The position numbers and the translations under genes were made by a program. From an uncultured Pseudomonadales bacterium (lineage in GTDB: Bacteria > Patescibacteriota > Microgenomatia > UBA1400 > Chazhemtobacteraceae): a stretch of 64,000 nucleotides of DNA. The stretch covers positions 651,786-715,785 of the forward strand of contig CAYQZQ010000001.1 of assembly GCA_964422035.1 (NCBI GenBank), written 5' to 3'. Of the stretch, positions 1 through 19,543 are shown one piece after another; position 1 is the stretch's first letter; each line of letters opens with the position of its first letter. The notes below the pieces were generated by a model. The model made no database searches, was not told the DNA's origin, and saw nothing but the letters and a program-made list of their open reading frames with translations.

Positions 1-629
1 TGAGGGATGGGAAGATCAGAAGAGAAAGGGGTTTGCTGGCCTTGTTTTGAGGGTTGAGGAGAGGAGGAAGAAGGACTGGTTTGAGGAGAAGGGGGCTGTT
101 TTGGAGGTTCGGGTTGTTGTTTTTCTGGGGGAGTTGGTTCTGGGGCAGGAGTGGGAGGAGGGGTTTTAGGAGAGTGGCGTTTATTAGTTTTGGCTTTTGT
201 TTTCTTGGGAGCAGCCTTTTTTTGGGTGACTTGAAAGGAGGAAAGAGGAGGAGAGGTTGGTTGTGAGTCAGTTTTTTGTTTGGATTGATTTTTAGGTTTG
301 GAAGGGGCGGGAGAGGAGTCTTTGGGTTGCTGTGGTTGTTGTTTTTGCCAGGTGTAGATGGTGGGAGAGTAGATGGATTTGAAGAAAGCAATGATCCATT
401 GACTTAGGGGTCGACCTTGGACAGGAAGGAAGGCAAGGGCAGCGCCCAGGGAGGCGAAGAAAATTATAAGTGGCCATTTGAAAAGGGCAGGAATAGGAAG
501 GGAGAAGGCGATAACGGCAAGAATACCTCCAGCGGCCAGTTGAAGAAACTGCTTTAGAGTCATGTCGCCGATGAGGCGAAATTGATACTGTGTTACGTTT
601 TGAGGAATAGGATGCTGTTGGACGGGCAT
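1..629 (-). CDS. PrgI-family-like (VirB3-like) T4SS membrane protein, 5' part only (C-terminus beyond window start); N-terminus MPVQQHPIPQNVTQYQFRLIGDMTLKQFLQLAAGGILAVIAF... then Pro/Ser/Lys-rich tail
   Basis: Manual translation of the minus strand from ATG at 629 to position 1 has no stop. It is absent from the ORF track because no stop lies in the window. The N-terminal motif QY.F.LIG.MT.KQF plus two hydrophobic segments matches recalled PrgI-family proteins. The listed 54..266(+) and 292..477(-) ORFs are out-of-frame shadows of it. Confidence 0.5.
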   Translation of the reverse strand, partial: MPVQQHPIPQNVTQYQFRLIGDMTLKQFLQLAAGGILAVIAFSLPIPALFKWPLIIFFASLGAALAFLPVQGRPLSQWIIAFFKSIYSPTIYTWQKQQPQQPKDSSPAPSKPKNQSKQKTDSQPTSPPLSSFQVTQKKAAPKKTKAKTNKRHSPKTPPPTPAPEPTPPEKQQPEPPKQPPSPQTSPSSSSPQPSKQGQQTPFSSDLPIP

Positions 630-736
630 GTTCTTAGTATACAATGAGAGGTCTATTTTGTGGTTGGGGAAATAAAGGTTTGTTTTACAAGAAGGTGATG
701 GTAAAATTAGGTTTAAATTAGCAACTAGAGATTTAT

Positions 737-2965
737 ATGGCAGAAGGTGAACCAATTTCTGGGATCGGGCCAAGTAGTATAAGTCGTGGTCCTGGCCATA
801 AAATGGAGAAAATTTCTCAGCCAACCAGTCAGGCTGAAGTGCCTGATATTAGAATGCAAAGAGATGAAGAAGAGGAGGTTGTTAGTGGTCGGGAAAAGCT
901 TGACGAGGAAAGAGAGATGTGGGAAGAGTTTGAAGAGGGTTATGGGAATAGAAATGAGATGAGGATGCCGGTAGTAACAGTTGAATTGGAAAAACCTGCT
1001 GAGGAGTTTAGTGCAAAAAAGTTTAAAAGGGCAGTACAAAAGGAGTTTTCATCTTGGGTAGATGGCTTAATTGCTAAAACTGGATCGGGGATGTCTGACA
1101 GGCCGGATCATATTAGATTAGGAAGGATGATGGATAGTATGAAAAATGCAGTTGATAGTTTAGAGATAAGAAGAAGCTTGGCAGAAGAGGGAGAGAAGGA
1201 AGTAGTAAGAAAACAGGAAAGTTTTGAAGAGATAAAGAAGAGGTTAATGAAAGAAGAAAAATTTACAGAAGAAGATTTTGAAGAAATGGGGAGAGGAGAG
1301 ATATTAAAAGTAACAAGAGCGAAGAAAGAGATGAAAGAGATTGAGTTTGGTGATAAAGAAAAGGAAAAACTGGAAGCGATTGAGGAAGCCTTGGAGTGGT
1401 CGGGAGCTATGGATGAGTTTATGTGGGGAGTTTATACTCATTGGGGGAGTTTAGGATGGTCAAGAGAATACTGGGCCAATGTCATCATGAATAGAGACAA
1501 AAGAGTGGTTAGATTGAAAGAGTTGTCCAAAATCAGAGAGATAGGACCGGTTAAGGAGGGTGAAATGCCAGTTGAGGAGTATTGGGACAAGGCGCAAAGA
1601 ATGATTATTGCAACAGCTTTGGTATCGATGGAGGCTGGTGAATCGGAAAATGAGAATATCCAAAAAGATTATGAGGTGGTTCCAAAAGATGTGGTGAAGT
1701 TGATAGGAGATGTTTTGACTGAAGAAGTGTCAGATTACTCGATAGACGAAGATTCCGGTGAAGAATCTGTGAAAGCGACACGCACAGTATTGAATATATT
1801 AAATATTGATCCAAAAAGTGATTTATTTGGCAAGACAAGTAAATTTATAAAAGCTTGTAGCTGGGTTGATGCGTGGGGCAGACTGAAAGAAGGAGGTAAA
1901 TACGAAGAAGTTAAAAGCGAAGTTGGTGATTGGATGAGTAAGATGGAGAAGGCGGAGAAAAGCGGTGAAGTGTCTTTTGGTTTGGATTTTGCGTTTAAGT
2001 TAGCTTTGGCTGACATTCATTTTGCAGGAATTGATACTAAATATGGGTGGAGCATGAAAGAAGAGATGAAATTAAAGAAGGAAGAGGGTGGAGATTGGAA
2101 GGTAAAAATAGGTAAAGATTGGAAAAAAACTGGAGAAGTAAAAGAAGGAGAGCAATTGTTTAAGAAAAAATATGATATGGGAGGATGGCCACAAGGAAAT
2201 GATGCCAATTATTTGGTGTGGTCAGGAGCAAGATTGAAAGAGGATGGGGGTCGTGACTGGCCGATAGGGCCTAATGTTCTTATGAGTGAAGAGGATGTTG
2301 AAAGAGCGGATGATCCAAGGCTTGAGACTGTGTTTCCCAATGGAATGATTCCTAACTTTTATGAGAAAGTCAAGCTGATGGTGAAAGTGGGAGTAGAAAA
2401 TTTAGATGTAGAGGAGATGTCTGATCGAGTAAAATCTACACTGGAGAATATTGGGAACATTGGAGAAGAGAAAACTTTTTGGGAGTTGTGGTGGAGAGAA
2501 GAAAATAGACATTATCAATTACCTTGGACAGGAGAAAGTGAAAGAGAAATGAAGGTATTGAGGGTTCCAAGAGATAACGAGCATAGTAAATGGTATGTGA
2601 CCTTGTTAATGGCTAATAGAGTGTTTGAAGCAGCTATCAATGATGATGTTAGGGAATTTCAAGAGCTGGTGTCTGTTGATAAGATGAAAAAGTTGATTAA
2701 AAATGCTGATATTGCTTTTGGGGTTGGTTCTGATAAAGCAAAAAGAATGGTGGTGGGAGTTTTGGCAGCACAGTCTTTATTGTTTAGTGGTTTATCGGAC
2801 CAACTGATTAGTAAAGATCAGAGAGAACAGGCTGTTAAGATGAAGGCAAAAAGCGATATAGGAAATAAGATCAGGTACTTATTAGATGAGGGCAAGCGAA
2901 GAGGGAAGTGGAGTAGTTTATACAATCAAATTATTGAGGAGGGTAAGATTGTCTGGAGAGATTAA
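737..2965 (+). CDS. large acidic (Glu/Lys-rich) hypothetical protein, no TM segments
   Basis: Long uninterrupted ORF of 742 aa, divergent from the PrgI-like gene. No recognisable catalytic motif. Confidence 0.55.
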   Translation: MAEGEPISGIGPSSISRGPGHKMEKISQPTSQAEVPDIRMQRDEEEEVVSGREKLDEEREMWEEFEEGYGNRNEMRMPVVTVELEKPAEEFSAKKFKRAVQKEFSSWVDGLIAKTGSGMSDRPDHIRLGRMMDSMKNAVDSLEIRRSLAEEGEKEVVRKQESFEEIKKRLMKEEKFTEEDFEEMGRGEILKVTRAKKEMKEIEFGDKEKEKLEAIEEALEWSGAMDEFMWGVYTHWGSLGWSREYWANVIMNRDKRVVRLKELSKIREIGPVKEGEMPVEEYWDKAQRMIIATALVSMEAGESENENIQKDYEVVPKDVVKLIGDVLTEEVSDYSIDEDSGEESVKATRTVLNILNIDPKSDLFGKTSKFIKACSWVDAWGRLKEGGKYEEVKSEVGDWMSKMEKAEKSGEVSFGLDFAFKLALADIHFAGIDTKYGWSMKEEMKLKKEEGGDWKVKIGKDWKKTGEVKEGEQLFKKKYDMGGWPQGNDANYLVWSGARLKEDGGRDWPIGPNVLMSEEDVERADDPRLETVFPNGMIPNFYEKVKLMVKVGVENLDVEEMSDRVKSTLENIGNIGEEKTFWELWWREENRHYQLPWTGESEREMKVLRVPRDNEHSKWYVTLLMANRVFEAAINDDVREFQELVSVDKMKKLIKNADIAFGVGSDKAKRMVVGVLAAQSLLFSGLSDQLISKDQREQAVKMKAKSDIGNKIRYLLDEGKRRGKWSSLYNQIIEEGKIVWRD

Positions 2966-2986
2966 TTAAAGAGAGCGAGTTTTTGA

Positions 2987-4684
2987 TTATGTGTTTGGTC
3001 TATTTCGACCTGTGGTGTTATCAATAAATTCATTGACAGTTGAGATGTTGGTTTCTTGACTTTGTATTTTTTTACCCATTTGTTTTATAAATTCTGGGGC
3101 ATTTGGATTTCTCATAACTGTGCCTAGTGAAGTTATTCCACGTCGAGTCATATCAAAGCTTGTTCCCAGTTCTCTTCCTAAATCAGAACCATATTTAAAT
3201 GGCTCTACTTGGAAGGCTTCCTTGATCATATCTACATATTTGGGAGCCATAAAGAGAAGTCCAAGACCTACTAGTGCTACCATGCCACTGGCACCAGCGC
3301 CTTGGTAGGGGAAAAGTACGGGAACACGAGGTGCGGCTGAAGCTTGCAGAAGCCCCTGTGTAATGTTTTCGTACTTAAAATAAAGAGGTTGAACCATGAA
3401 AAGATAGGAAAATAAGAGGAGAAATGATGTGGCTGGAAAAACAATAAGATTGGCAAAAGTGTTTCTTAGCCAGTTGCCGACTGAGTTGGAACCGGGAAAA
3501 ACGTTGCCAAGAAGGATAAGTGGGGCAAAGATCAGATTAATAATGACGGTTATATAGGCACCTATTAGTTTAAAGAATAGTTTTCCATAGGAAATTAATG
3601 TAGCGATTAGGAGAATGGCTCCGACTATTATAGTTGGGATACCACCAACGAAAATTATAGATAAGGCGTTTGCTACGCCCCAAAAGATGCCTGTAATACC
3701 TGCTGGGAGGCCGGTAATGGCTCCGATTGCACCTGGAATACCAGATACGAAGGCAATAAATGTGTTGAAAAATCCACTTAAAATAAGACCAGCCCGACCA
3801 GAAGCAACATTGGCAAGAATATTTCCATATTCAGCGACCGGTCCAGTTTGAATTACATTGAAAGTTTCGAGGGCGCTAAAGCCGAGGAAGAAAAGAAGCC
3901 AGACTAAATCAAACATAAGCCCGATTATGGCGTAAGAAAAGGTGATCAAAAATAGAGTGAATATTAGTTTAGGTAAAGCCTGTTGAATGTTGACTGATGT
4001 TTGAGGATTTATCTTGACGCGGAACATGATCATAAAACCATAAACGAGGAAAAGAAGAACAAAGATCATATAGGCAATATTTCGAAAAGCGCGCCAAATT
4101 GGCAAAAAGCCTTGTAAGCTGGAAAAACCGTATCCACCACTATTGTCCTCTTGAGCATATGAAGGTTGAACAATTTTATGTTTTGCCATGTTGTCTTTAA
4201 CGCTGGCGACGTATTGATAAGTTTGGGCGGGGGGGTTTTTGAAAGGAGAAGATACTAATTGACCTAAGCTGGAAAGGAGGCTGTTATTGGAAGTGGATTG
4301 GTTAACTGCTTGATTGGTGATGTCGATTGTTGCTAGAAGACTCAGAGGCTGGTTTTGCCCTTGTTTTTTTTCATTGAATTTTTTGAATAATTCATCAAAA
4401 ATTGCTTCTCCGGTTTTTTCTTGTTCGCCGATCATAAATTCTAAGGCGTGGAGAATGATGATGTCTCCGAAACCGGTGCCTTCGCCTGTGAATGTGTTGT
4501 TGGTCCCACATTTACCGGCATACCAAGTTTCAAGGTTCATGGTGTCTCCTTGTCTTTTTTCACAGAAATCGTAGAGAGCGTCGTTTAAGGCTTCATTATT
4601 CTTTGCAGCAGCGACAGGATGGGGGAGAAAGGCTGAGGATATGAAAATTAGAGTGGTAAAAAAGATAATGAATTTTTTGCTCAT
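2987..4684 (-). CDS. polytopic membrane protein with signal peptide, ~200 aa exported domain and Gly-rich TM bundle; VirB6/TrbL-like candidate
   Basis: Signal peptide MSKKFIIFFTTLIFISSAFLPHPVAAA, then at least 6 hydrophobic helices rich in G/A/I. The architecture and the pilus-gene neighbourhood support the call. Confidence 0.45.
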   Translation of the reverse strand: MSKKFIIFFTTLIFISSAFLPHPVAAAKNNEALNDALYDFCEKRQGDTMNLETWYAGKCGTNNTFTGEGTGFGDIIILHALEFMIGEQEKTGEAIFDELFKKFNEKKQGQNQPLSLLATIDITNQAVNQSTSNNSLLSSLGQLVSSPFKNPPAQTYQYVASVKDNMAKHKIVQPSYAQEDNSGGYGFSSLQGFLPIWRAFRNIAYMIFVLLFLVYGFMIMFRVKINPQTSVNIQQALPKLIFTLFLITFSYAIIGLMFDLVWLLFFLGFSALETFNVIQTGPVAEYGNILANVASGRAGLILSGFFNTFIAFVSGIPGAIGAITGLPAGITGIFWGVANALSIIFVGGIPTIIVGAILLIATLISYGKLFFKLIGAYITVIINLIFAPLILLGNVFPGSNSVGNWLRNTFANLIVFPATSFLLLFSYLFMVQPLYFKYENITQGLLQASAAPRVPVLFPYQGAGASGMVALVGLGLLFMAPKYVDMIKEAFQVEPFKYGSDLGRELGTSFDMTRRGITSLGTVMRNPNAPEFIKQMGKKIQSQETNISTVNEFIDNTTGRNRPNT

Positions 4685-4731
4685 TGATTTGATTATATCA
4701 ACCTGAGTTAGTAATGGAAACTTGGATTTTG

Positions 4732-7113
4732 TTAATTGCCGATGTAATTTAAGTTTTGGTCGTAGTTGTTGTTAAACCAGATGCCGTATTCACAGTAGTT
4801 TTGGTTTCCCAGGCGAGCGTAGCTGACGCCTTCCTTGCAGGCGGCGCTGTTAAAGCTTGTGATGGCGGCTCGCATAACAGCGTCACTGTAAGGTTTTTTT
4901 TGGCTGACATTTAGAGAAACCATTTTGGCTACGGCATAGGCGGAGTCAACCATGGAGCAGATATTGGTTTCTTGTGAAGAGTTGTGGCATTCATTGTAGG
5001 CGTTGCCGTAGTTGGCACCTCCTGACCAGATGTCTAGATTTTCAGCTGCAGGATTGGGGCATTTATTGGGGAGGAAGCAGTAGGGGTGTTCTGGGTCTCT
5101 TTGGTTTCTTTGAGAGACGGTCTCGCCAATTGAGCCGTCTTTGTTATGTAGGAACTGGAAAGGCCCCCAGGAGCCGCAGCCGTCTCCGGATGGAGCGCAA
5201 TAAGCTTCTGTTTGGCGGTCAAAGTTGTTGGAATATAAGTCGCCCACCTCAACGGTGGAGATGGCGGCGATTACTTTGGGTGAGATGCCAAAGCAGGCGG
5301 CAGCTTGTTGGAAAAGTTGCTTGGCTTGAGAGCTGAACTGGACAGGGTTTTGATAGACGTCTGCCCGAACTGAGAAAGGGGAAGTGTTTTTATATTGCGA
5401 ACAGGATTGGGCGACACCTTGAGAGCTGATGCGGGCATAAGGATCAGAGCAGTCTAAGGTTGAGTCTTGTTGACCGGATGGAATAAGCCACTGATTGCGA
5501 AGCTGGCATAGATCAACATGGGACTGACCGGCTTGTCTGGGGACAGGAGAGGAGTTGTCATTGGTGTTGGTGGTGGTGATGACGACTTCATCTTCTGAAT
5601 CAAAGAAAGAGATAGGAGCTTCGATGCGGGTGTCTTTCTGAGATGAAGGTGTGAAGCTGGGAGTAAATATTTGATAAAGAGAGGAGGAGTTTTGATTAAG
5701 AGAAGAAAGAGAGGTGTTGATGTTTGATTGGGCGGGGTTGTTGGCGATGACGATTGGTTTTCCGGTGACGGTTGCAAGACCTTTAATCTTCCAAGTGGAA
5801 GAGGTTCGTATGGCAATTGGAGTTGTAAGGGGAGTGAGGGTAGGTTTGATGTATCGATAGGAAATATGACGGGTAATTTGGACGGGAACGATGACTGTCT
5901 GGGAGAAAGAAGGGGCGAGGGCTAGGTGTTGAGGGTTGGTTAGAGGAGAGGGAAGATAGATGGCGTCAATGATGTTGTCACATTGGTTTCTATCAAATTC
6001 ACCTGAAGTGATCTGTTCTTGTAGTTGGGTAAGAAAACTGGGAATGGATTGTTGTTCTTGGGATTGGTTGATGAAGCGATCATTTGTAAGAGAGCCTTCC
6101 CGTTGGTTGTTGATCCATTGAGGAGAGTAGAGGTTGACTAGACCGGTTTGGGGGTTAGTTAAACCTTCATCTAAGGCAGCTAGGTAGGGTAGATTTTCGC
6201 CATAGACGGAAGAGATAAAGGAAAAGCTTTGGCTTAGTTGAGCTAAGTAGCCGCGGTAGTTGTCAAAGGGTAAAGGTAAGAGAGCATCGTAGGCAGCCTT
6301 GGTGTCAGGTTTGAGGGTGTTGTAGGCTTTGGTGTAATTGCAAAATCTTATCTCGATGTGTTTTTTGAAGAAGGGAATATTAAAGTCAATAGAGGGGTCA
6401 ACAACTAATAAACAACGAGATTGATTGGCTAGTTCTATGGCTAAACGTTTTATGTCTTTGGTTTGTTGATTGCCGTCTTTGTCAAAGTATTGGATTTGGT
6501 AGTTTTGATAGATCTCTTCTTCTCCACCAGGAAGTAAAGTTCTTATATCAGGATAGTCTTCGTTCTGGCGGATAAAGGCGGCTTTGGCTTTGGCTTGTTG
6601 CTGGAAGGTGGTAGTGCGCCAGTAGGTGCGATAGGCTTCTTTAGGGAGAGGTGAGTCGGTGGCAGGATAGTAGGTGTTGGGCTGGTCAAAAAGAGCTTGA
6701 AAAGGGTATATTTGGGCATTGCGGTCAGGAGAGGATTGATGAATGATTTGAGCGTTGGCTCCAAAACCACCTAGTTGGGCGCGGTCCATATTAGCGTAGA
6801 TTTCAGTGGTCAATTCACCGTTAGTTTGGTACTTGGTGCAATTGCCGTATTGGTCGGTTTCTACACAAGGCAGAGATGAGTAGGAGAGATTTAGGGGTTC
6901 TTTGTCACTTTCAAAGTTAACATTGACTTTGGGGCTGGAGGTACAGGTTAACTGATAATCATCGAGGTCTTGATGGATAAGATCGGTTTCGGTTTCGCAG
7001 TCTTCGGTGGGGCGGTAGGGATTTTGTCCGGCAGGACAAGGGGCAGCCAGAGTAGGAGAAGATAAAAGAAGGGTAAAAAAAAGTAGGGGTAGAATTTTAA
7101 GCAAACGCTTCAT
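4732..7113 (-). CDS. large secreted protein; C-terminal region lytic-transglycosylase-like (VirB1-like?)
   Basis: The likely start is the internal MKRLLKILPLLFFTLLLSSPTLAAP signal peptide at 7113, not 7338. The C-terminus carries AISTVE...GPFQF...GNAYNEC, resembling the SLT motifs ES / GLMQ / AYNAG. Confidence 0.45.
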   Translation of the reverse strand: MKRLLKILPLLFFTLLLSSPTLAAPCPAGQNPYRPTEDCETETDLIHQDLDDYQLTCTSSPKVNVNFESDKEPLNLSYSSLPCVETDQYGNCTKYQTNGELTTEIYANMDRAQLGGFGANAQIIHQSSPDRNAQIYPFQALFDQPNTYYPATDSPLPKEAYRTYWRTTTFQQQAKAKAAFIRQNEDYPDIRTLLPGGEEEIYQNYQIQYFDKDGNQQTKDIKRLAIELANQSRCLLVVDPSIDFNIPFFKKHIEIRFCNYTKAYNTLKPDTKAAYDALLPLPFDNYRGYLAQLSQSFSFISSVYGENLPYLAALDEGLTNPQTGLVNLYSPQWINNQREGSLTNDRFINQSQEQQSIPSFLTQLQEQITSGEFDRNQCDNIIDAIYLPSPLTNPQHLALAPSFSQTVIVPVQITRHISYRYIKPTLTPLTTPIAIRTSSTWKIKGLATVTGKPIVIANNPAQSNINTSLSSLNQNSSSLYQIFTPSFTPSSQKDTRIEAPISFFDSEDEVVITTTNTNDNSSPVPRQAGQSHVDLCQLRNQWLIPSGQQDSTLDCSDPYARISSQGVAQSCSQYKNTSPFSVRADVYQNPVQFSSQAKQLFQQAAACFGISPKVIAAISTVEVGDLYSNNFDRQTEAYCAPSGDGCGSWGPFQFLHNKDGSIGETVSQRNQRDPEHPYCFLPNKCPNPAAENLDIWSGGANYGNAYNECHNSSQETNICSMVDSAYAVAKMVSLNVSQKKPYSDAVMRAAITSFNSAACKEGVSYARLGNQNYCEYGIWFNNNYDQNLNYIGN

Positions 7114-7138
7114 GAGGATATTGTAGCAATAAGAAGGG

Positions 7139-7492
7139 TTATGGAGTGAGATTGATCTGGGTGACGGGAGCACCAGTGAACTGTTCGATAAGATAAAGGA
7201 CAAACCAAGCGAGAGCAAGACCGGCGATACCGATGATGGCGTAGGTGAGAGCTTTGTAAGCGCCTTGAACTTGTTTGGGGTCGTCGCCGGCCATGATAAG
7301 TCTGGCTCCGGCGAAGAGGATAACACCAAAGGCGACAAGAATGAGTAGGGGAGAAAGAATGCTGATGATGTTTAGAAGAACGCACTTGATGCCGGTGATG
7401 GTGGGAATGATTTCTCCGTCGACTTGTTGAGCGCATCCTTGATTAACCCACTGGTTGGCTTCAATTTTAGCGGCGTGTGCGGTTAGATTCAT
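7139..7492 (-). CDS. VirB2/TrbC-like pilin paralog 1 (two TM segments flanking a GDDPKQVQGAYKAL loop)
   Basis: About 110 aa, hydrophobic-loop-hydrophobic layout. The loop motif is related to paralogs 2-7. Confidence 0.6.
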   Translation of the reverse strand: MNLTAHAAKIEANQWVNQGCAQQVDGEIIPTITGIKCVLLNIISILSPLLILVAFGVILFAGARLIMAGDDPKQVQGAYKALTYAIIGIAGLALAWFVLYLIEQFTGAPVTQINLTP

Positions 7493-7515
7493 ATGTGTAA
7501 TTATAAACTAATAAC

Positions 7516-7550
7516 AAAAACCCTCTGGAGTAGAGGGTTTTTGCTTTATT
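7516..7550. terminator. bidirectional rho-independent terminator hairpin (AAAAACCCTCT-GGAGTA-AGAGGGTTTTT) flanked by T/A runs
   Basis: Perfect inverted repeat followed by a T-run on the plus strand and an A-run upstream. It lies between pilin paralogs 1 and 2. Confidence 0.6.
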
Positions 7551-7566
7551 TTTTGCTTTATGATGC

Positions 7567-7896
7567 TTATTTTAGGGAAGGAAGAGAAAGCTCGGAGATT
7601 GATTGACCGAAGAGGAAGGTGGTGATTAGGTTAATCAAAGCGTAAGCAGCAGCGATGACGATTAACCCAATGACTGCATTGGTAATTTTCTTTTGTGCTT
7701 CTTCAGTTTTGGCTTTATCGCCACCTGAAGTAATCCATTGAAAACCGCCCAGGATTAAAAAGATGAAAGCAGCTAGAGCACCGAGAACAATAGAGGCGTT
7801 AACCAAACCTTGAAGTAAGGTTCCGATATTGCTAATGGCGTAACTTGGTTCGGGGACTCCGACTGATTCGGCAAATGCTTTTTTGATTATTTGCAT
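7567..7896 (-). CDS. VirB2/TrbC-like pilin paralog 2
   Basis: Contains QWITSGGDKAKTEEAQKKITNAVIGLIVI between two hydrophobic helices. Confidence 0.65.
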   Translation of the reverse strand: MQIIKKAFAESVGVPEPSYAISNIGTLLQGLVNASIVLGALAAFIFLILGGFQWITSGGDKAKTEEAQKKITNAVIGLIVIAAAYALINLITTFLFGQSISELSLPSLK

Positions 7897-7957
7897 GTTG
7901 ATGTGTATTTAGTAATTGTTAATGAAATTATACTTAGCTTAAAAGATAACTGTCAAA

Positions 7958-8272
7958 TTAAGAAGTAGGTAGGGCTTGGTCTAGACCTAAGAAGTTTTTG
8001 ATAAGAACAAAAACTGCGTAAGAGGCGACGACGATGATAAGACCGGTTAAACCATTGGTAATTTGCTTTTGAGCTTGTTCAACTTTAGCTTTGTCTCCAC
8101 CTGAGGTAATCCACTGAAGGCCGCCTAAGATAAAGTAAATGAGGGCAGCCAGAGCGGCGATGATGATAAGGGCATTGATTAGGCTGCTGATTAGAGTACC
8201 TACGTCTTGAAAGGCGAAAAAGCCTTGAGTTTGGGTTTTAAGATTTGATTGCATATTAGAAGTTCCAGTCAA
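7958..8272 (-). CDS. VirB2/TrbC-like pilin paralog 3
   Basis: Contains LQWITSGGDKAKVEQAQKQITNGLTGLII. Confidence 0.65.
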   Translation of the reverse strand: MTGTSNMQSNLKTQTQGFFAFQDVGTLISSLINALIIIAALAALIYFILGGLQWITSGGDKAKVEQAQKQITNGLTGLIIVVASYAVFVLIKNFLGLDQALPTS

Positions 8273-8591
8273 TATTTAGTAAATCAATTTTTAAGAATTC
8301 ACTGATAAGGCTGACAATGGCAAAGGAGGCGACTAGAATGATAAGGCCGGTTAAAGCATTGGTAATTTGCTTTTGAGCTTGTTCAACTTTAGCCTTGTCT
8401 CCACCTGAAGTAATCCACTGGAGACCTCCTATAATAAAGTAGATTAGAAAGGCTAGGCCGCCGACGATGACTAGCGCTTTCCAGATTTGACCAATATAAA
8501 AGGCAAGGCCGGCTCCGGCCTGTGAGGGGGTAGTGAATTGGTTAAGGACAGGGTTTTTGATGGCGGCGTGTGTTTGGGGTACTATTTTCAT
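8256..8591 (-). CDS. VirB2/TrbC-like pilin paralog 4
   Basis: Contains LQWITSGGDKAKVEQAQKQITNALTGLII. Overlaps paralog 3 by 17 nt. Confidence 0.65.
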   Translation of the reverse strand: MKIVPQTHAAIKNPVLNQFTTPSQAGAGLAFYIGQIWKALVIVGGLAFLIYFIIGGLQWITSGGDKAKVEQAQKQITNALTGLIILVASFAIVSLISEFLKIDLLNIDWNF

Positions 8592-8941
8592 GAAAGGTCC
8601 AGTAATTTTAATGGTTCAAGGAGTTGAATGTCGAGAATGTTGCCGATGATGGCGATGGCAAAGTAGGCTACAAGGACGATGACAAGGCCGGTTAAACCAT
8701 TGGTAATCTGCTTTTGAGCTTGTTCAACTTTAGCTTTGTCTCCACCTGAGGTGATCCATTGAAGAGCTCCGATGAGGAAGTAGAGGATGAAGGCGAGTCC
8801 GGCGGTGACGGTAAGGAAACCTATTACTGTTGAAAATAAATTTTCAAAAAGGGCTGGGTCTTGAGGATCTTGCATGTATTTGCCGGGGCCGGTGATGTTA
8901 CCCAGGTCAATCTGGGCGTAGGCTTGGGGTATTATTTTCAT
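8588..8941 (-). CDS. VirB2/TrbC-like pilin paralog 5
   Basis: Contains LQWITSGGDKAKVEQAQKQITNGLTGLVI. ATGA overlap with paralog 4. Confidence 0.65.
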   Translation of the reverse strand: MKIIPQAYAQIDLGNITGPGKYMQDPQDPALFENLFSTVIGFLTVTAGLAFILYFLIGALQWITSGGDKAKVEQAQKQITNGLTGLVIVLVAYFAIAIIGNILDIQLLEPLKLLDLS

Positions 8942-8943
8942 GA

Positions 8944-9297
8944 TTAGTTAACGGTTTGTAATTGAGGGCTTAGGATGTAGGTGTAGCTGCCGAAAAGAAG
9001 TTTGCTGATTATGGCGGTGACGATAAAGACAGCTACCATGACAAGTAAACCAATGAGAGCATTGGTGATTTGTTGTTGGGCGGAGCGGACTTTGTCCTGA
9101 TCGCCAGCGGCGGTGATGATAGAGAAACCTCCTAAAAGCATTTGGATTAAAGCAAAGAGACCGGCGGCTACAAAGATAACTCTAATTAAAGTTGAGAGAA
9201 AGCTGCCAAGGTCGCTGGTTTCAGTAACGACTGAAGGAGGAGGGGTGAGTTTGCCGACAACATCTTTGGCATAAGTTTTTGAGATTAGACTTAACAT
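8944..9297 (-). CDS. VirB2/TrbC-like pilin paralog 6 (divergent loop AAGDQDKVRSAQQQITNALIGL)
   Basis: Same two-TM architecture. Confidence 0.6.
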   Translation of the reverse strand: MLSLISKTYAKDVVGKLTPPPSVVTETSDLGSFLSTLIRVIFVAAGLFALIQMLLGGFSIITAAGDQDKVRSAQQQITNALIGLLVMVAVFIVTAIISKLLFGSYTYILSPQLQTVN

Positions 9298-9298
9298 A

Positions 9299-9634
9299 TT
9301 AAAAGATTGGCAAACCGCCGACGTTAAATAATATTCGAGTTATCCAGAAAGCGATAACTGCCAGGGCTAGCCCTAGTAAGGAAAATAGTAACATATTAGA
9401 AGCTTTTTGTGTTTCTTTGGGGTTGCCCCCAGCGATTATGTAACGGAAACCGGCTATAAGAGAGGAGATGAAAGCAGCAAGACCGGCTACAATGGTGATG
9501 TTTTGAATAATGGGGCTTAAGATACTGGAAAAAGTTGGGTTACTACCTAAAGATTTGCTGGGAGTAAAGGCGTCACCTAGATCAGTGGCAGCGTAAACTA
9601 GCGGTGCGGTCAAAAGTTTGCCTGTGAGTTTCAT
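9299..9634 (-). CDS. VirB2/TrbC-like pilin paralog 7 (loop AGGNPKETQKASNML)
   Basis: Same two-TM architecture. It is the first gene of the minus-strand array. Confidence 0.6.
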   Translation of the reverse strand: MKLTGKLLTAPLVYAATDLGDAFTPSKSLGSNPTFSSILSPIIQNITIVAGLAAFISSLIAGFRYIIAGGNPKETQKASNMLLFSLLGLALAVIAFWITRILFNVGGLPIF

Positions 9635-9670
9635 GTAAACAAATTATAACAGGTAGGTATAATAAAGGCC

Positions 9671-10741
9671 ATGAAGGCTATAAATAAGCTACAGAATTTT
9701 AAGATAAGGTTTGACAAGATCTTGCAAGAAGAGATCTTGGAGTGGAGGAGAGAGGCGGTGAGGTTAGATGAGCGGTGGGAGCTATTTATGAAAGTACTGG
9801 AAGAGTTTGTAGTTAGGGGCGGGAAAAGGATAAGGCCGGCGTTTTTATACTATTCATATTTGGCTTGTGGAGGAGAAGAGGCGGAGAAAGCAATGAGAGC
9901 AGGGGTAAGTCTGGAGCTTTTGCATGCGTTTTTGTTGATTCACGATGATATGATAGATAATTCTGATTTAAGACGAGGGGGTCCGACTGTTCACAAGGTT
10001 TTTGAGGAGGAGCACAAGAAAATGTCTTTGGAAGGAAATAGTGAGGAGTTTGGTAGATCAACGGCAATGATTTTAGGAGACGTGGTGCAGATGCTAGCAA
10101 GAAAACAGTTGCGCAAGGTGGACTTGAGGGAAGATATGTATAGAGAAAGCGAGAAAATAATGGAAGATCTTTTATGGGAGACGGCGTATGGTTGGTATAT
10201 TGAGATGTTGAATGCAAAAACCAGAGTGATTGAAGAGAAAGATGTTAAAAGATCGATGGAGTATGTTTCAGCTAGATATACAGTGTCAGGGCCGGTGAAG
10301 ATGGGAGCGATGTTGGCAGAAGCTGAAGTAGGAAAAATTAAGGCACTGGAGGAGTATGGACTGAATTTGGGTTTGGCTTTTCAGATTCAGGATGATGTTT
10401 TGGGGATGTTTGGAGATGAAGCAAAGGTGGGCAAGCCGGTGGAAAGTGATTTGAAAGAGGGAAAAAAGACGCTTTTGATTTTAAGAACACTTGACAAGCT
10501 TGAAGATGAAGAAACTAAGAATAAGCTGATGAGTATATATGGAAACAGTGAGGCAACAAGGCAGGATTTGGTTTGGGTGAGAGATTTAATAAAGAGTGAA
10601 GGTGTTTTGGAGGAGGTAAAAGGGGAGGCAAGAGGGTTGGCTGAGAAAGCGAAAAAGGAGTTAAAAAGCTTAGATTGGGATGAGAAAGGAGAGGGGTTTC
10701 TATTGGGTATAGCTTCATATATAGTAGAAAGACAAGTATGA
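9671..10741 (+). CDS. trans-isoprenyl diphosphate (polyprenyl) synthase
   Basis: FARM motif LIHDDMIDNSDLRRG and SARM motif FQIQDDVLG...GK. Confidence 0.85.
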   Translation: MKAINKLQNFKIRFDKILQEEILEWRREAVRLDERWELFMKVLEEFVVRGGKRIRPAFLYYSYLACGGEEAEKAMRAGVSLELLHAFLLIHDDMIDNSDLRRGGPTVHKVFEEEHKKMSLEGNSEEFGRSTAMILGDVVQMLARKQLRKVDLREDMYRESEKIMEDLLWETAYGWYIEMLNAKTRVIEEKDVKRSMEYVSARYTVSGPVKMGAMLAEAEVGKIKALEEYGLNLGLAFQIQDDVLGMFGDEAKVGKPVESDLKEGKKTLLILRTLDKLEDEETKNKLMSIYGNSEATRQDLVWVRDLIKSEGVLEEVKGEARGLAEKAKKELKSLDWDEKGEGFLLGIASYIVERQV

Positions 10742-11247
10742 GAAAAGTTCAAGTAGTAAATAACCAAGGGGAGACGATTGGAGAAGAGGAGAAGCTGGCA
10801 GCACACAAGAAGGGTTTATTGCACAGAGCGTTTTCAGTCTTTGTTTTTAATAGTGATGGAGAGTTGATGTTACAACAAAGAGCCAGTGGTAAATATCACT
10901 CAGGAGGTTTGTGGAGTAATACATGTTGCTCTCATCCGGAGCCGGGAGAAGAAGTGTTGGAGGCGGCGCATAGGAGAATTCAAGAAGAGATGGGGTTTGA
11001 TTGTGAGATGGAAGAGAAGTTTACATTTCAATACAGAGTGGAGTTTGAGAATGGGTTAGTGGAAAATGAGTATGATCATGTGATTTTTGGAGAGTATGAT
11101 GGAGAACCTGATCCTAGTGAAGAAGAGGCAGATGATTGGAAGTGGGAGAGTTTGGAAAAAATTAGAGAGGAAGTGGAGGAGAAACCAGAGAAGTTTAGTT
11201 TTTGGTTTAAGGGTTTGTTATCTGAGGTTATTGAAAAGAGAAGTTAA
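10738..11247 (+). CDS. idi: isopentenyl-diphosphate delta-isomerase, type 1 (Nudix)
   Basis: LHRAFSVFVFN...WSNTCCSHP...GE...ENEYDHV matches recalled E. coli Idi active-site regions. Confidence 0.85.
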   Translation: MRKVQVVNNQGETIGEEEKLAAHKKGLLHRAFSVFVFNSDGELMLQQRASGKYHSGGLWSNTCCSHPEPGEEVLEAAHRRIQEEMGFDCEMEEKFTFQYRVEFENGLVENEYDHVIFGEYDGEPDPSEEEADDWKWESLEKIREEVEEKPEKFSFWFKGLLSEVIEKRS

Positions 11248-11963
11248 GAGGTTTTGTTTTTTGAGTCTCCTCCAAAACGGCGATCGCGTGAAGTGTAGCT
11301 TTGGAGAGCTTTGTTGAATTGGTTGGTGTCAAAGTCAGGGAAGAGAGTATCGGTAAAGTAGAGCTCTGAATAAACTGCTTGCCAGGGCAAGAAGCCGGAA
11401 AGGCGAACTTCACCTCCGGTGCGGATGATTAGGTCAGGGTCAGGCAGGTCAGCAGTATCAAGCATGGAGGAGAAAAGCTCTTCGGTGACTTCTTTGGCCT
11501 GGTAACCTTTTTTGATGATTTTTTTGACAGCTCGAAGTATTTCGTCACGGCCGCCGTAGTTTAGAGCAAAGGAAACAGTAATTTGATCATTGTCTTTGGA
11601 TTTTTGAATCAGTTTTTGAACTTTTTGGGCGATGTCTTGAGGGAAGCGGTCTACTTGACCAAGAACATTTAGTCTAGCACCTTTTTTAATGAATCTATCA
11701 GCTAAAGTTTTTAAGCCCTTGCGGAAGATTGAGAAAAGAGCCTGAATTTCATCCTTGTCTCTTTTCCAGTTTTCGGTTGAGAAAGCCCAGAAGGTGACGT
11801 AGGGGATATTAAGTTGGGCACAGCGCTCAATGATGGGTTCGATTACATTCATGGCAGCGTGGTCGTGACCTTCGACGGGTTCTTTGTCTTGGTTTTTAGC
11901 CCAGCGACGATTGCCGTCCATGATGATAGCAACGTGTTGAGGGGTTTTTAGGCTTTTTTCCAT
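11244..11963 (-). CDS. uppS: undecaprenyl-diphosphate synthase (cis-prenyltransferase)
   Basis: HVAIIMDGNRRWA motif, plus RTGGEVRLSGFLPWQ near the C-terminus. Confidence 0.85.
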   Translation of the reverse strand: MEKSLKTPQHVAIIMDGNRRWAKNQDKEPVEGHDHAAMNVIEPIIERCAQLNIPYVTFWAFSTENWKRDKDEIQALFSIFRKGLKTLADRFIKKGARLNVLGQVDRFPQDIAQKVQKLIQKSKDNDQITVSFALNYGGRDEILRAVKKIIKKGYQAKEVTEELFSSMLDTADLPDPDLIIRTGGEVRLSGFLPWQAVYSELYFTDTLFPDFDTNQFNKALQSYTSRDRRFGGDSKNKTS

Positions 11964-12023
11964 AGAACTGATTATAACAATTATGTGTTTGCGTTAATTA
12001 TGCGTTAATTATGCGGGAATTAT

Positions 12024-12353
12024 TTAAAATGGAAGAATTGAAGAATCGTAGTTTAGCATAGAAGTGATAATTTTAACAATTAAAAATGAGGCTAAGACAA
12101 TAACAAGTCCGATAAAACCATTTAGGAGGCGGGTGTTGGTTTTGCTGAGAGACTCCGGGTCATCGCCGCCGAATATGTAGCCAAAAGAAGTGATGATTAG
12201 ATTAATAAAGAAGATAAAAGCGATGATGAAGAAAGCAACATCTAAAAGGTTGAAGCCGCCGGAGGTGATTAATTGGGTAATAGTGGGGTTGTTGGAGGAG
12301 AACTTAGTAGCGGGGTTGTAGAGGTTTGATATGTCTACTTGAGCTAGTTGCAT
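12024..12353 (-). CDS. VirB2/TrbC-like pilin paralog 8 (loop GGDDPESLSKTNTRLLNGFIGL)
   Basis: Two TM segments plus a GGDDP loop, as in paralog 1. Confidence 0.55.
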   Translation of the reverse strand: MQLAQVDISNLYNPATKFSSNNPTITQLITSGGFNLLDVAFFIIAFIFFINLIITSFGYIFGGDDPESLSKTNTRLLNGFIGLVIVLASFLIVKIITSMLNYDSSILPF

Positions 12354-12357
12354 GGGT

Positions 12358-12903
12358 CTATTGTAAACCAGGTAGGCCTAGAATGTTAATACCGATTATA
12401 TTCATGAGTATAGTGGAGAAGATTATGAAAATGAGTCCGGCGATGGCGGAGGTGATAACCTCTTTGCCGGCGTTGACTTTGTCAGGAATGCCGCCGGAAG
12501 TGGTGATTAAAAATAAACCATAGACAATAAGAATTAAAGCGATGGCCCCACCGATGCCGATACCTAAGGTGAGAATGTTTTTGATAAAACCGTCTCCTTG
12601 TAGATTGGTGGGAATGCAGCCTAAGGCTGTGTTGATTCCTTGGTTACCATTACACTGAAGATTGTTGACATCAGAAGATCCTTTAAGGTTTTTGTTTTTT
12701 TGGTCTCTGGTGTTTTCGCAAGCTTCGAGTGAGGAGTAGACGGAGTCGCCGCTGTTGAGATTGGTTTCTTGGCAACTGCAGCCGTAACTAGTACAGTGAA
12801 GAATGTAGTTTTGGGAGCTCTGGGCTTTGGCAGGTAAAGAAGTGAGGAGAGAGAAGGATAGAAGAGCGGTAAAGATAATAATAATTTTAGTTTTCATAAG
12901 CAA
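12358..12903 (-). CDS. pilin-like protein with N-terminal Cys-rich secreted domain (paralog 9)
   Basis: Classic signal peptide, an ~90 aa domain with 8 Cys, then the TM-ITTSGGIPDKVNAGKEVITSAIAGL-TM module. Confidence 0.55.
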   Translation of the reverse strand: MLMKTKIIIIFTALLSFSLLTSLPAKAQSSQNYILHCTSYGCSCQETNLNSGDSVYSSLEACENTRDQKNKNLKGSSDVNNLQCNGNQGINTALGCIPTNLQGDGFIKNILTLGIGIGGAIALILIVYGLFLITTSGGIPDKVNAGKEVITSAIAGLIFIIFSTILMNIIGINILGLPGLQ

Positions 12904-12942
12904 TGGTTAAATTTTACCAGAGAAGTAGGTACAATATAAACC

Positions 12943-14727
12943 ATGAGGAAATATGTAAAGATTGGATTGTTGATAACAGTGATAGTAGGAGGGGTGGTAG
13001 TATTTGCGACTAATAATAGAATTAGAGCTGAGGAAAACTGTGAACAGTTTAAGGAAAACAGTGGAAATTATTATGAGTGTTTGGGAAAAGAGATTAGTGA
13101 TTTAGAAGAGAAGCTACAACTTTCTAAGGCAGCTACTGCTCCTTTGGAAGCAGAGATGAATAAATTAGAAAGCAGGATTGATTCGATTCAAGCTCAGATT
13201 AGGGCGGCAGAAACAAGGAGAGAAAAACTGGTGGAAGAGATAGAGGAAAGAGAAGATAATTTGGCGGTTCAGTATGTTTTGTTGCGTCAGAAGTTGCGAG
13301 AGTATTACAAAAGAATGAGATCTTCCTCAAGTATGGTGTTTTTATTATCAGAAGTTGGTTCAGGAGAGGTGAGTAGAGATTTAGGATATAGAGAAGTGGC
13401 AACAAAACAAGATAGGAAGTTAATTTTGTCGATCTCAGATGAAATTGTAGGGTTAGAAGAGGATAAAAAGCAGGTGGAGGAAAGTAAAAAGGAGTTGGCA
13501 GTGCTACAAAGTCGGCTGGATGAGCAAAAGGAATTTTTTGAAGGGGAGATAGCAGGAGCGAAGGCTTATCAGACAGATTTGGAGGGGCAAATTGCAGAAC
13601 TGACTTCGAAGCAGCAGCAGTTGTTAGCGGAAAAGTATGGAAGTTTAAATTTGCCAGAAAGTTTAGGGGCGGGAACGTTGTATTGTACAGATGATAGAAA
13701 TCTAAATCCGGGCTTTTCACCAGCTTTTGCTTTTTACACTTATGGAATTCCTCATAGGGTGGGGATGAGTCAATATGGGGCTTACGGGAGAGCTAGTTCA
13801 GGACAGAGTTATACACAGATTTTAGAAGCTTATTTTAGTGCGTCTCTTGAATGTAAAGATATGCCAAGTGAGATTTTGGTAGAAGGATATGGTGTTCGTA
13901 GTATGGATGATTATGTTAAGGGAGTGGTGAATAAAGAGATGGGAGCTGATTTAGTTGAAGCACTGAAAGCTCAGGCAGTGGCAGCTCGTTCTTATGCTTT
14001 GGCTTATACTAATAATGCTCAAAAATCGATTTGTGCAACTCAGAGTTGTCAGGTTTATTCTGATGCAAGAAGAGGGGTGGTTGACGGTGCAGTGGATGCG
14101 ACAGGTAAGAATGTGTGTGGAGATGGGCGGGCACAAGTTTTAACTTCTAATGGGCAGCCAGTGACTGCGTGGTATGCATCAACGGCAGGTGGTTATACGT
14201 TTTTTAATTCTGATGTGTGGGGTGGGTCAAGAAGACCTTGGACAAAGCGGGTGGTAGATGCTTCTGGTTCGGTGGGTAGTTTTAGTGATTTGCATAATAA
14301 AGCGTATGATAAAGATTCATCTTGTTTTTATGCAGCTCAAGGCTGGAGAAGTCAATATGATAATTCGGCTTGGCTTAAAAGTGAGGAGGTGGCAGATATT
14401 GTGAATGTGTTGATGCTGGCTAATAAGGATAGTTCAACGCAGGTGCACTTGCCACAGGTGGATAAGCCAAATCCGGATGGTAAAGAGACTTGGGATGCAG
14501 AAAGAGTAAAGTCAGAGTTAAGGTCCAAGGATGGCAATCCTTATAATTCTGTGTCTTCGGTTTCGGTGAGTGTTGATTTTGGTACAGGAAGAGTTACGAG
14601 CGTGACAGTGTCAGGAGATACAGGAACTAAGTCTTTTGATGGGAGTCGTTTTATAGATTACTTTAATTTGAGAGCGCCAGCTAATATTCAGATAGTGGGA
14701 CCGTTGTTTAATGTGGAAACTAAGTGA
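12943..14727 (+). CDS. SpoIID/LytB-domain protein with N-terminal coiled-coil
   Basis: GIPHRVGMSQYGAYGRA motif (SpoIID GVGMSQYGA). The N-terminus is heptad-rich. Confidence 0.7.
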   Translation: MRKYVKIGLLITVIVGGVVVFATNNRIRAEENCEQFKENSGNYYECLGKEISDLEEKLQLSKAATAPLEAEMNKLESRIDSIQAQIRAAETRREKLVEEIEEREDNLAVQYVLLRQKLREYYKRMRSSSSMVFLLSEVGSGEVSRDLGYREVATKQDRKLILSISDEIVGLEEDKKQVEESKKELAVLQSRLDEQKEFFEGEIAGAKAYQTDLEGQIAELTSKQQQLLAEKYGSLNLPESLGAGTLYCTDDRNLNPGFSPAFAFYTYGIPHRVGMSQYGAYGRASSGQSYTQILEAYFSASLECKDMPSEILVEGYGVRSMDDYVKGVVNKEMGADLVEALKAQAVAARSYALAYTNNAQKSICATQSCQVYSDARRGVVDGAVDATGKNVCGDGRAQVLTSNGQPVTAWYASTAGGYTFFNSDVWGGSRRPWTKRVVDASGSVGSFSDLHNKAYDKDSSCFYAAQGWRSQYDNSAWLKSEEVADIVNVLMLANKDSSTQVHLPQVDKPNPDGKETWDAERVKSELRSKDGNPYNSVSSVSVSVDFGTGRVTSVTVSGDTGTKSFDGSRFIDYFNLRAPANIQIVGPLFNVETK

Positions 14728-14759
14728 TAGAAAAATAGAGGATAGTGTAAAATTAAGGC

Positions 14760-15452: not shown

Positions 15453-15471
15453 TTATAAATAAATTTTAAAA

Positions 15472-15687: not shown

Positions 15688-15731
15688 AAGAATTTTTCTT
15701 GGCGGCTTGATTTTATTGGTACACTGTACTT

Positions 15732-19458: not shown

Positions 19459-19543
19459 GGTGGGGTGCTCCGAATTGGTTAAGGAACCGGTCTTGAAAAC
19501 CGGCGCCCGCAAGGGCTTGTGGGTTCGAGTCCCACCCCCACCG
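19459..19543 (+). tRNA. tRNA-Ser (anticodon TGA), type II with long variable arm
   Basis: Acceptor GGTGGGG/CCCCACC, anticodon loop CTTGAAA, T-loop TTCGAGT. The D-arm appears to carry one extra nucleotide. Confidence 0.75.

Follow-up and report, generated by a model that had tools for sequence, protein, structure and literature searches.

We describe a gene that went unlisted at the left edge of a 64,000-nucleotide stretch of contig CAYQZQ010000001.1 (the window, in what follows), where the minus strand is open from position 629 to position 1. The gene very probably encodes the PrgI/VirB3 membrane subunit of a type IV secretion system (T4SS) that is located on the chromosome near the origin in a member of the Patescibacteria (class Microgenomatia), and in this subunit a short N-terminal module would act as a membrane anchor for the VirB4 ATPase and would carry a folded C-terminal domain on a tether. 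The identity of the gene is by itself a routine gain in annotation, the missed gene being the PrgI/VirB3 of a T4SS that has already been described in Patescibacteria. What is new is the predicted transthyretin-like domain tethered to a VirB3 protein, which occurs clade-wide in Microgenomatia (about a thousand clusters at 50% identity) and is not mentioned in the available T4SS literature.

Open frame, family membership and protein architecture

The frame that starts at the ATG at 627-629 contains 209 codons without a stop up to position 1 and its translation begins with MPVQQHPIPQNVTQYQFRLIGDMTLKQFLQLAAGGILAVIAF, just as the initial annotation had read it. Among the six frames over positions 1-629 it is the only one without stop codons; the other five hold 4 to 12 each. 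Because Met1 is nearly invariant in an alignment of 66 homologues and the residues next to it are conserved, we take this ATG to be the true start, and a gene call on a Logan contig gives the same start. This contig (SRR7048227_20121, 47,928 bp, referred to below as L001) was located through the complete neighbouring gene at 737-2965 (+). Its positions 9265-17346 correspond to window positions 1-8082 with 8082 of 8082 nucleotides identical and it therefore represents the same DNA, adding 9,264 nt beyond position 1, so that the extension of the contig past the window edge to which the initial annotation had pointed became available. The full prgI gene has 301 codons (L001 8988-9893); its stop lies 276 nt past position 1 and 92 codons (L001 8988-9264) fall outside the window. 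Two listed open reading frames (ORFs) overlap it, namely 54..266 (+) and 292..477 (-), the latter out of frame with prgI (offset 2). They had been regarded as frame shadows, and rightly so: neither matches a Pfam family at E ≤ 1, and tblastn finds them in 0 of 80 related loci, compared to 80 of 80 for the PrgI frame. These loci, which also underlie the synteny counts below (neighbours by tblastn), are the best 80 of 262 relatives from GTDB representative genomes.

A Pfam-A scan of the 209-aa fragment returned PrgI (PF12666) as the sole family, with E 1.6e-7 and 32.2 bits versus a gathering score of 27, and the full 301-aa protein scores 31.3 bits, likewise above the cut-off. The envelope covers profile positions 1-86 of 91, and the same profile matches all 66 aligned homologues (66/66, best E 1.7e-11). 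The earlier impression of a PrgI-like N-terminus followed by a second hydrophobic helix is thus confirmed for both the fragment and the full protein. Models of NCBIfam gave insignificant matches only (SCO6880_fam at E 0.009, EccE and RodZ) in a scan of the fragment.

Proteins of the VirB3/PrgI class are described as 10-15 kDa in size, with two transmembrane (TM) helices followed by a C-terminal alpha-helix, short terminal extensions, and a gene beside virB4 (PMC12857230). The two TM helices and the C-terminal helix are found here in the structural model, the TM helices also in the hydropathy profile, and the gene lies beside virB4 on the same strand, with trsD in between as in the pGO1 subclass. 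The small size is not found, as about 207 residues of the 301-aa protein extend beyond the PrgI module. Neither is the protein a VirB3-VirB4 fusion of the type represented by CagE and Campylobacter CmgB3/4: the genes are separate, with stops between them. No such fusions were found in Patescibacteria (PMC12102498).

In the alignment of the 66 homologues conservation is concentrated in residues 1-94 and 206-296 and is lacking in the stretch between them, and the model obtained with AlphaFold2 (AF2; single chain, with the same alignment) divides the protein in the same manner. Invariant residues of the N-terminal module (N-module) include Q5, H6, P9, F17, R18, L19, G21 and T24 and, further on, G72, R73, W78, F82, S85, Y87, P89, T90 and W94. 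The loop between the two TM helices is very short (4-8 residues). The third helix is amphipathic and aromatic-rich, its 19-aa hydropathy is about 0.4, and it corresponds to the C-terminal alpha-helix of canonical VirB3 and by analogy would make the contact with VirB4/TrsD. From about residue 89 to 205 AF2 predicts disorder. The linker in this region is rich in Pro, Ser, Lys and Gln in the window's protein and in Pro, Thr and Ser family-wide (20% Pro, 15% Thr, 11% Ser), hence its richness in Lys is particular to the window's protein. Across the homologues the linker varies from 33 to 150 aa in length and from -10 to +17 in net charge, its sequence is unconserved, and a TM-like segment is present in 0 of 66. 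The initial annotation had described this region as a Pro/Ser/Lys-rich tail; the stretch is real (residues ~95-205) but it is not a terminal tail, as the gene continues for 92 more codons into a folded beta-sandwich. Many more distant homologues (among them P0141, P0157, P0176, P0195, P0198, P0203, P0212, P0217, P0222 and P0274) have in their linkers a conserved amphipathic motif, (L/F)(S/L)K(L/V)E.(A/S)E..(F/Y)LS(K/R)(I/L/V)..LF, which may be an additional interaction helix and which is absent from the window's protein.

The C-terminal domain (residues ~212-300, outside the window) is modelled by AF2 as a seven-stranded beta-sandwich with a predicted local distance difference test score (pLDDT) above 90. 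In Foldseek searches against the PDB its matches were transthyretin-like domains from carboxypeptidases N, D and M as well as one domain of pyrogallol transhydroxylase. The best matches (2nsm, 3mn8, 1qmu and 5aq0; carboxypeptidase N/D) have E 1e-5 to 1e-3 and root-mean-square deviations of 2.3-3.3 Å over 82-86 columns (2.6-3.0 Å over 82 columns at E ~1e-5), and more distant ones include SdrD B, CnaB, UafA, pilus adhesins and the S-layer protein SlaB. The Pfam family CarboxypepD_reg (PF13620) matches residues 217-276 with 20.4 bits and E 6.5e-4, below its gathering score of 32.3, and reaches E ≤ 0.01 in 17 of the 66 homologues (best 2.6e-6). On the strength of the model we interpret the C-terminal region as a confidently folded, putative transthyretin-like (carboxypeptidase-regulatory-like) beta-sandwich carried on a disordered spacer. 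It is the best-conserved part of the protein, with 55-70% identity to the query compared to 41-49% over the whole protein for most full-length matches.

A 90%-clustered database contains 2,674 homologues of the full protein (E ≤ 1e-3), and the clade-wide median length is about 359 aa. An NCBI contig of 725,544 bp encodes the identical protein. Homologues with names are titled 'hypothetical protein' or, spuriously, 'Minus agglutinin', and come from Candidatus Collierbacteria and Woesebacteria. The C-terminal domain is present in 120 of the 120 closest homologues. When the N-module by itself (window 345-629) served as query in an exhaustive HMMER scan, 1,725 representative clusters matched at E ≤ 1e-3, 1,262 of them at E ≤ 1e-10. 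All of the best 150 matches begin with the module and 120 have the C-terminal domain; most of the other 30 end within the Pro/Thr-rich linker, as would be expected of truncated gene calls.

Operon, synteny and comparison with known systems

Beyond position 1 the prgI stop is followed after 18 nt by the ATG of a gene for a TrsD-like protein, whose TGA in turn overlaps the virB4 ATG (ATGA), an overlap that suggests translational coupling. No terminator-like sites were found on the minus strand between the three genes. Thus, prgI, trsD and virB4 form an operon in which prgI is first. Its promoter is presumably located in the 107-bp region that separates prgI from the divergent 742-aa ORF, where a search of the minus strand for a consensus sigma-70 promoter gave no match. 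The initial annotation had supposed that the ATPases missing from the window lie just past position 1. This holds for VirB4, which starts 1,083 nt beyond the edge on the same strand with trsD between, and fails for a VirD4-type coupling ATPase: none is encoded beyond the edge on the Logan contig, where genes for an M23 protein, a bitopic protein, DnaN and DnaA are found instead. The dnaN and dnaA genes are on the opposite strand, at 6.3 kb and ~7.8 kb from the PrgI stop, respectively. None of the outcomes that the initial annotation had named as refuting its reading was seen.

VirB4 is recognized by NF045971 (conju_CD1110) with 376.3 bits versus a cut-off of 325, and by the Pfam models P-loop_TraG (101 bits), AAA_10 (53.5), DUF87 (35.5) and CagE_TrbE_VirB (23.8, cut-off 21). 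The best matching PDB sequence is the Gram-positive VirB4 4AG5 (E 1.3e-43), followed by TrwK of R388 (6.7e-8), and by sequence the protein appears related to the VirB4 of the monoderm mating-pair formation class FATA (MPF-FATA). The 263-aa protein matches N-terminal regions of VirB4-type models only, namely VirB4_plasma at positions 102-292 (E 5e-11), TrsD NF041427 (E 6e-6) and VirB4_CagE at 16-142 (E 1e-5), all below the curated cut-offs (for NF041427, 26 versus 200 bits). VirB4 itself matches its models from position ~180 on and retains its own match to the N-terminal domain CagE_TrbE_VirB. Consequently, the 263-aa protein is an extra stand-alone paralogue of the VirB4 N-terminal domain (TrsD-like), and VirB4 has not been split in two. 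In the 836-aa protein four hydrophobic segments are combined with an M23 peptidase domain at the C-terminus (67 bits), and it is hence a wall hydrolase of the VirB1 type. The 352-aa protein consists of one N-terminal TM helix, a Pro/Gln/Ser-rich spacer and a C-terminal globular part; this topology and the position of the gene would suit a VirB8-like scaffold.

Upstream of prgI, on the same strand and inside the window, is the gene of a 565-aa polytopic protein. Neither this protein nor any of its 498 homologues contains a Pfam domain. Its AF2 model (pLDDT 78, predicted TM-score 0.61) gave chains of R388 TrwI/VirB6 and Legionella DotA as Foldseek ranks 1-7, with E 0.03-1, none at E ≤ 1e-3, and TM-scores of at most 0.42 (target-normalised). 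We treat it as a candidate VirB6/PrgH-like partner of PrgI on the basis of this model.

The 80 related loci align over query residues 1 to ~296 at 32-48% identity and carry titles of Collier-, Woese-, Beckwith- and Shapirobacteria, Microgenomates and 'Patescibacteria group'. TrsD follows PrgI in 78 of the 80 and VirB4 in 76, the exceptions being mostly truncated contigs, and the 565-aa protein is encoded upstream on the same strand in 51. Other neighbours are the M23 protein (29 loci), DnaN (21) and the 352-aa bitopic protein (7), and the 742-aa protein is found in none. Many metagenome-assembled genomes with a PrgI-TrsD-VirB4 set of the Microgenomatia type are titled 'uncultured Pseudomonadales', 'uncultured Gammaproteobacteria' or 'Candidatus Bathyarchaeia archaeon', which are probably placeholder or wrong taxonomic labels.

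The T4SS catalogue of Patescibacteria (Quinonero-Coronel et al. 2025, PMC12102498) describes a VirB4 related to MPF-FATA, abundant TrsD, PrgI/VirB3 and VirB6, arrays of VirB2-like pilins, especially in Microgenomatia and Saccharimonadia, and clusters that are often near dnaA/dnaN and mostly lack a relaxase. The present locus shares the VirB4 type, TrsD, PrgI/VirB3, the pilin array, a peptidoglycan hydrolase and the proximity to dnaA/dnaN; because component set and context match point by point, we regard it as the already-described system. For Ca. Southlakia epibionticum, where the T4SS was shown to be essential (Wang et al. 2023, as cited in PMC12102498), the catalogue reports that epibiotic growth requires PrgI. 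It makes no mention of a C-terminal domain of PrgI ('carboxypeptidase' occurs 0 times and the lone 'C-terminal' refers to VirB1), and no paper came up in a full-text literature search that combined VirB3 and 'transthyretin-like'. The catalogue also reports that VirB6 is scarce in Microgenomatia, that Patescibacteria other than ABY1 have almost no detectable homologues of VirB8, and that only 22.6% of Microgenomatia VirB3 matches are VirB4-associated, whereas in the PrgI clade studied here the genes are adjacent in 76-78 of 80 loci; the 22.6% may include matches of other VirB3-type profiles to unrelated small membrane proteins. The prgI-trsD-virB4 adjacency and the conserved polytopic protein with a weak VirB6-like fold encoded upstream may fill both gaps reported for Microgenomatia, the scarce VirB6 and the rare association of VirB3 with VirB4.

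PrgI of the Enterococcus faecalis plasmid pCF10, the type member of PF12666 and the VirB3 equivalent of MPF-FATA, has the same two TM helices and C-terminal helix, and its gene is likewise located downstream of a polytopic VirB6-like gene and just upstream of the VirB4 gene (prgH-prgI-prgJ, PMC12857230). It is 117 aa long, compared to 301 aa here with the ~110-aa disordered spacer and the predicted transthyretin-like domain. Also unlike pCF10, trsD is inserted between prgI and virB4, a non-conserved opposite-strand 742-aa gene separates prgI from the VirB6 candidate, and the locus is chromosomal rather than plasmid-borne, with no relaxase among the cluster genes and large ORFs scanned. The gene order found here is also that of TrsC-TrsD-TrsE of pGO1/pSK41 and TraC-TraD-TraE of pIP501, with a small two-TM VirB3-like protein, a TrsD-type protein and VirB4, where the TrsD-type protein is remotely homologous to the N-terminus of VirB4. 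These systems are conjugative, with a relaxase and a type IV coupling protein, and their VirB3-like proteins are small and without the C-terminal domain found here.

TrwM, the VirB3 of plasmid R388, is known from cryo-electron microscopy (7O41, 8RTD) and has the same secondary-structure layout as the window's N-module but no detectable sequence similarity to this PrgI and no C-terminal extension. The diderm R388 system includes VirB7/9/10 and VirB8, components missing from the present one. Six copies of VirB3 tie its central VirB4 hexamer to the inner membrane, VirB3 and VirB6 form the proposed VirB2 recruitment site, and VirB4 extracts pilins together with VirB11, a component that Gram-positive systems do not have (PMC12624023). 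The SCO6880 family of actinobacterial, conjugation-related proteins (NF042935) resembles two of the present proteins far below its cut-off of 60 bits: PrgI residues 17-83 match model positions 11-75 (E ~0.01, 15 bits) and VirB4 residues 70-218 match the C-terminal part of the model at 326-476 (E 2e-10, 40 bits). In SCO6880 the hairpin is followed by a domain like the VirB4 N-terminal domain, not by a transthyretin-like one as here.

Proposed role and alternative readings

By homology to R388 TrwM/VirB3 and pCF10 PrgI, the N-module (residues 1-94) would form a hairpin in the cytoplasmic membrane, probably in six copies per machine. The conserved cytoplasmic N-terminal segment and helix 3 would bind the N-terminal domain of VirB4, and possibly TrsD, by analogy with those systems, and would in this way anchor the ATPase hexamer. 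Together with a VirB6-like protein, for which the 565-aa protein is the candidate, PrgI would make up the recruitment site for membrane-borne VirB2-like pilins, whose extraction and assembly into the pilus would be driven by VirB4; the window encodes nine pilin paralogs. The transthyretin-like domain would serve as a lineage-specific tethered binding module. Since VirB3 sits at the proposed pilin gate and contacts VirB4, the added domain could provide a handle on partner choice or scaffolding in the essential, mostly relaxase-less systems of the Candidate Phyla Radiation (CPR).

As to where the C-terminal domain is located, we lean towards the cytoplasm, around the VirB4/TrsD complex. An orientation with both termini inside is favoured by the distribution of Lys and Arg (~2.6 in the N-terminal flank, ~2.3 after TM helix 2 and ~1.0 in the loop) and by the lack of a TM segment past the hairpin. 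The composition of the spacer is no sign of export, as TrsD and VirB4 of this genome, which are cytoplasmic, also carry disordered tails rich in Pro, Gln, Ser and Thr. The natural fusion of a hairpin with a domain like the VirB4 N-terminal domain in the weakly matching SCO6880 family likewise supports a cytoplasmic C-terminus after the hairpin.

Several observations weigh against the main reading or parts of it. Transthyretin-like and CnaB-like sandwiches on Pro/Thr-rich spacers are typically extracytoplasmic in bacteria, which speaks against a place in the cytoplasm, and the positive-inside counts are modest. The length of 301 aa is nearly threefold that of canonical VirB3 proteins (10-15 kDa). 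Support for the 565-aa protein as a VirB6 is weak (Foldseek E ≥ 0.03). The Pfam VirB3 model PF05101, which the initial annotation had named beside PrgI, matches neither the fragment nor the 301-aa protein at E ≤ 1, and the PrgI family profile has no match among PDB sequences at E ≤ 1. As a result of these two negatives the tie to structurally characterised VirB3 is indirect, and the label 'VirB3-like' rests on the equivalence of PrgI and VirB3 in the literature (PMC12857230).

The most serious competitor keeps the PrgI anchor and places the spacer and the transthyretin-like domain outside the cytoplasm, so that PrgI would be a wall-spanning tether with six sandwiches at the base of the pilus or at the cell surface. 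There they could bind peptidoglycan, the pilus or the host cell and partly replace the VirB8/VirB10-type scaffold that is undetectable in these monoderm systems. We consider this arrangement possible though unlikely. Among the folds nearest to the C-terminal domain are adhesin modules of extracellular proteins (SdrD B, CnaB, UafA, pilus adhesins, SlaB) beside the carboxypeptidase domains, the ~110-aa spacer when fully extended could span a cell wall, and a weak RodZ-like match covers the linker; the Pro-rich linker of RodZ is periplasmic. The near absence of VirB8 from Patescibacteria outside ABY1 (PMC12102498) points in the same direction. However, the arrangement needs either an inverted hairpin with both termini outside or a third TM helix, and helix 3 with its hydropathy of ~0.4 is a poor match for the latter, as are the tails of the homologues without any TM-like segment. 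The positive-inside counts favour the opposite orientation, the Pro/Gln/Ser/Thr-rich tails also occur on cytoplasmic TrsD and VirB4, and canonical VirB3, whose termini are cytoplasmic, is sometimes fused to the N-terminus of cytoplasmic VirB4 (PMC12857230, PMC12624023). A broader idea, which we offer as an improbable one, is that the VirB3 of Microgenomatia is a tentacled hub whose six transthyretin-like domains on flexible tethers would recruit a substrate or partner on the cytoplasmic side around VirB4/TrsD, where no VirD4 is encoded nearby, or, if exported, would supply the missing wall-spanning scaffold at the base of the pilus. If true, it would add a new functional module to the least-understood core subunit of the T4SS, in a system reported to be essential for CPR epibiosis.

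Two further readings concern the nature of the locus itself. That it is part of an integrative and conjugative element, with PrgI serving DNA conjugation as in pCF10, pIP501 and pGO1 rather than a domesticated chromosomal host-interaction system, would agree with the colinearity of prgI-trsD-virB4 with trsC-trsD-trsE in the pGO1 subclass of MPF-FATA and with the ancestry that patescibacterial VirB4 shares with that class (PMC12102498). We nevertheless hold it to be highly improbable: the locus adjoins dnaN/dnaA, 76-78 of 80 species-level genomes share the same fixed arrangement, tblastn against 72,556 plasmids gave no match, and a scan of the cluster genes and of neighbouring and large ORFs in the 64-kb window revealed no relaxase or VirD4-type protein, the rest of which is housekeeping, in line with most such clusters being without a relaxase (PMC12102498). 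The probability is close to negligible that a generic two-TM hairpin followed by low-complexity sequence matches PrgI by chance, or that the long frame is an artefact of biased composition and no gene. The Pfam score exceeds its cut-off by only ~5 bits, short hydrophobic hairpins do match spuriously (as in the weak EccE and SCO6880 matches), and a GC skew of +0.37 could lengthen open frames. Against this, 66 of 66 homologues match PrgI and 1,725 clusters match the N-module, the conserved motifs QQHP.P, FRL.G.MT and GRP are not hydrophobic, the frame is kept in 80 of 80 loci and the alternative ORFs in 0, and the adjacency to TrsD/VirB4 is near-universal. With conservation and T4SS linkage both observed, a chance hit or artefact is effectively refuted.

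Other features of the locus

Coordinates of prgI, its parts and the surrounding genes are collected below.

Table 1. Features of the prgI locus. Positions refer to the window, or to the Logan contig where preceded by L001.
Feature	Position	Strand	Basis
prgI, 5' two-thirds (codons 1-209 of 301)	1..629	-	open frame, PF12666, identical contig, 80/80 loci
PrgI domain, aa 7-89	363..611	-	Pfam envelope
TM helix 1, aa 25-43	501..557	-	AF2 core pLDDT 94-96; Kyte-Doolittle 19-aa mean up to 2.1
TM helix 2, aa 48-66	432..488	-	AF2 helix; hydropathy 1.6-1.8
Helix 3, amphipathic, aromatic-rich, aa 75-87	369..407	-	AF2 helix; invariant W78, F82, S85, Y87
Low-complexity linker, aa 95-205	15..347	-	pLDDT mostly <50
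LPIP motif, aa 206-209, opening the C-terminal domain	3..14	-	L206, P207, P209 invariant, I208 nearly
Divergent intergenic region, 107 bp, prgI (-) / 742-aa ORF (+)	630..736		gene coordinates
TrsD-like protein, 263 aa	L001 8178-8969	same as prgI	matches to N-terminal part of VirB4 models
VirB4 ATPase, 635 aa	L001 6274-8181	same as prgI	NF045971
M23 protein, 836 aa	L001 3708-6218	same as prgI	M23 domain
Bitopic protein, 352 aa	L001 2660-3718	-	no family match
742-aa Glu/Lys-rich ORF	737-2965	+	no Pfam/NCBIfam family
565-aa polytopic protein, signal peptide and ~7 TM helices	2987..4684	-	TM scan
793-aa secreted Cys-rich protein	4732..7113	-	Logan call L001 13996-16377; mechanical ORF runs to 7338
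Seven tandem VirB2-like pilin paralogs	7139..9634	-	PF18895 T4SS_pilin
Individual pilin ORFs of the array	7139-7492, 7567-7896, 7958-8272, 8256-8591, 8588-8941, 8944-9297, 9299-9634	-
Two further pilin paralogs (12024-12353, 12358-12903)	12024..12903	-	PF18895, 24.0 and 29.5 bits

The 742-aa ORF lies between the VirB6 candidate and prgI and is divergent from the latter. Because it has no tblastn match in the 80 related loci, it represents an insertion that is specific to the lineage, within a T4SS cluster whose other genes are conserved. The 793-aa protein starts with a signal-peptide-like sequence, MKRLLKILPLLFFTLLL; its C-terminus resembles lytic transglycosylases marginally, with MltB/EmtA at a non-significant E of 0.11-0.15. 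The array of seven pilins scores 24.2-43.5 bits with PF18895, five of the seven being above the cut-off of 26.6, and it is separated from the two further pilins by a cluster of isoprenoid genes (polyprenyl synthetase, NUDIX and UppS, 9671-11963). One of these two pilins is 181 aa long and has an N-terminal extension. The Logan contig ends at about window position 8082, within the array, probably as an assembly break at the paralogs.

The base composition of the window is extreme, with 17,857 G versus 8,186 C, that is, the skew of +0.37 holds over the whole 64 kb, and it was also noted for L001 1-9264. Many 4-kb bins reach +0.4 to +0.56, with the same sign over genes of the plus and minus strands; lower values occur at 28-40 kb (minimum -0.05 at 32-36 kb) and again at 44-48 kb. 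Loci from related Microgenomatia are skewed in the same direction and more weakly (mean 0.14, maximum 0.35). The GC skew accounts for the proteins rich in Gln, Pro and Ser on the minus strand and for the richness in Glu, Lys and Gly of the 742-aa protein on the plus strand.

The other large ORFs of the window that were scanned are of housekeeping type (DnaG, RpoD, a MacB/FtsX-HlyD system, aldolase, sulfatase and SmpB), and there is in addition a tRNA cluster. The latter (19459-21696, +) comprises four tRNA-Ser genes (tga, gct, cga, gga) and one tRNA-Arg. Between the first two tRNA-Ser genes is an ORF of 304 aa (19588-20502) that matches LAGLIDADG_3 weakly and may be the remnant of a homing endonuclease.

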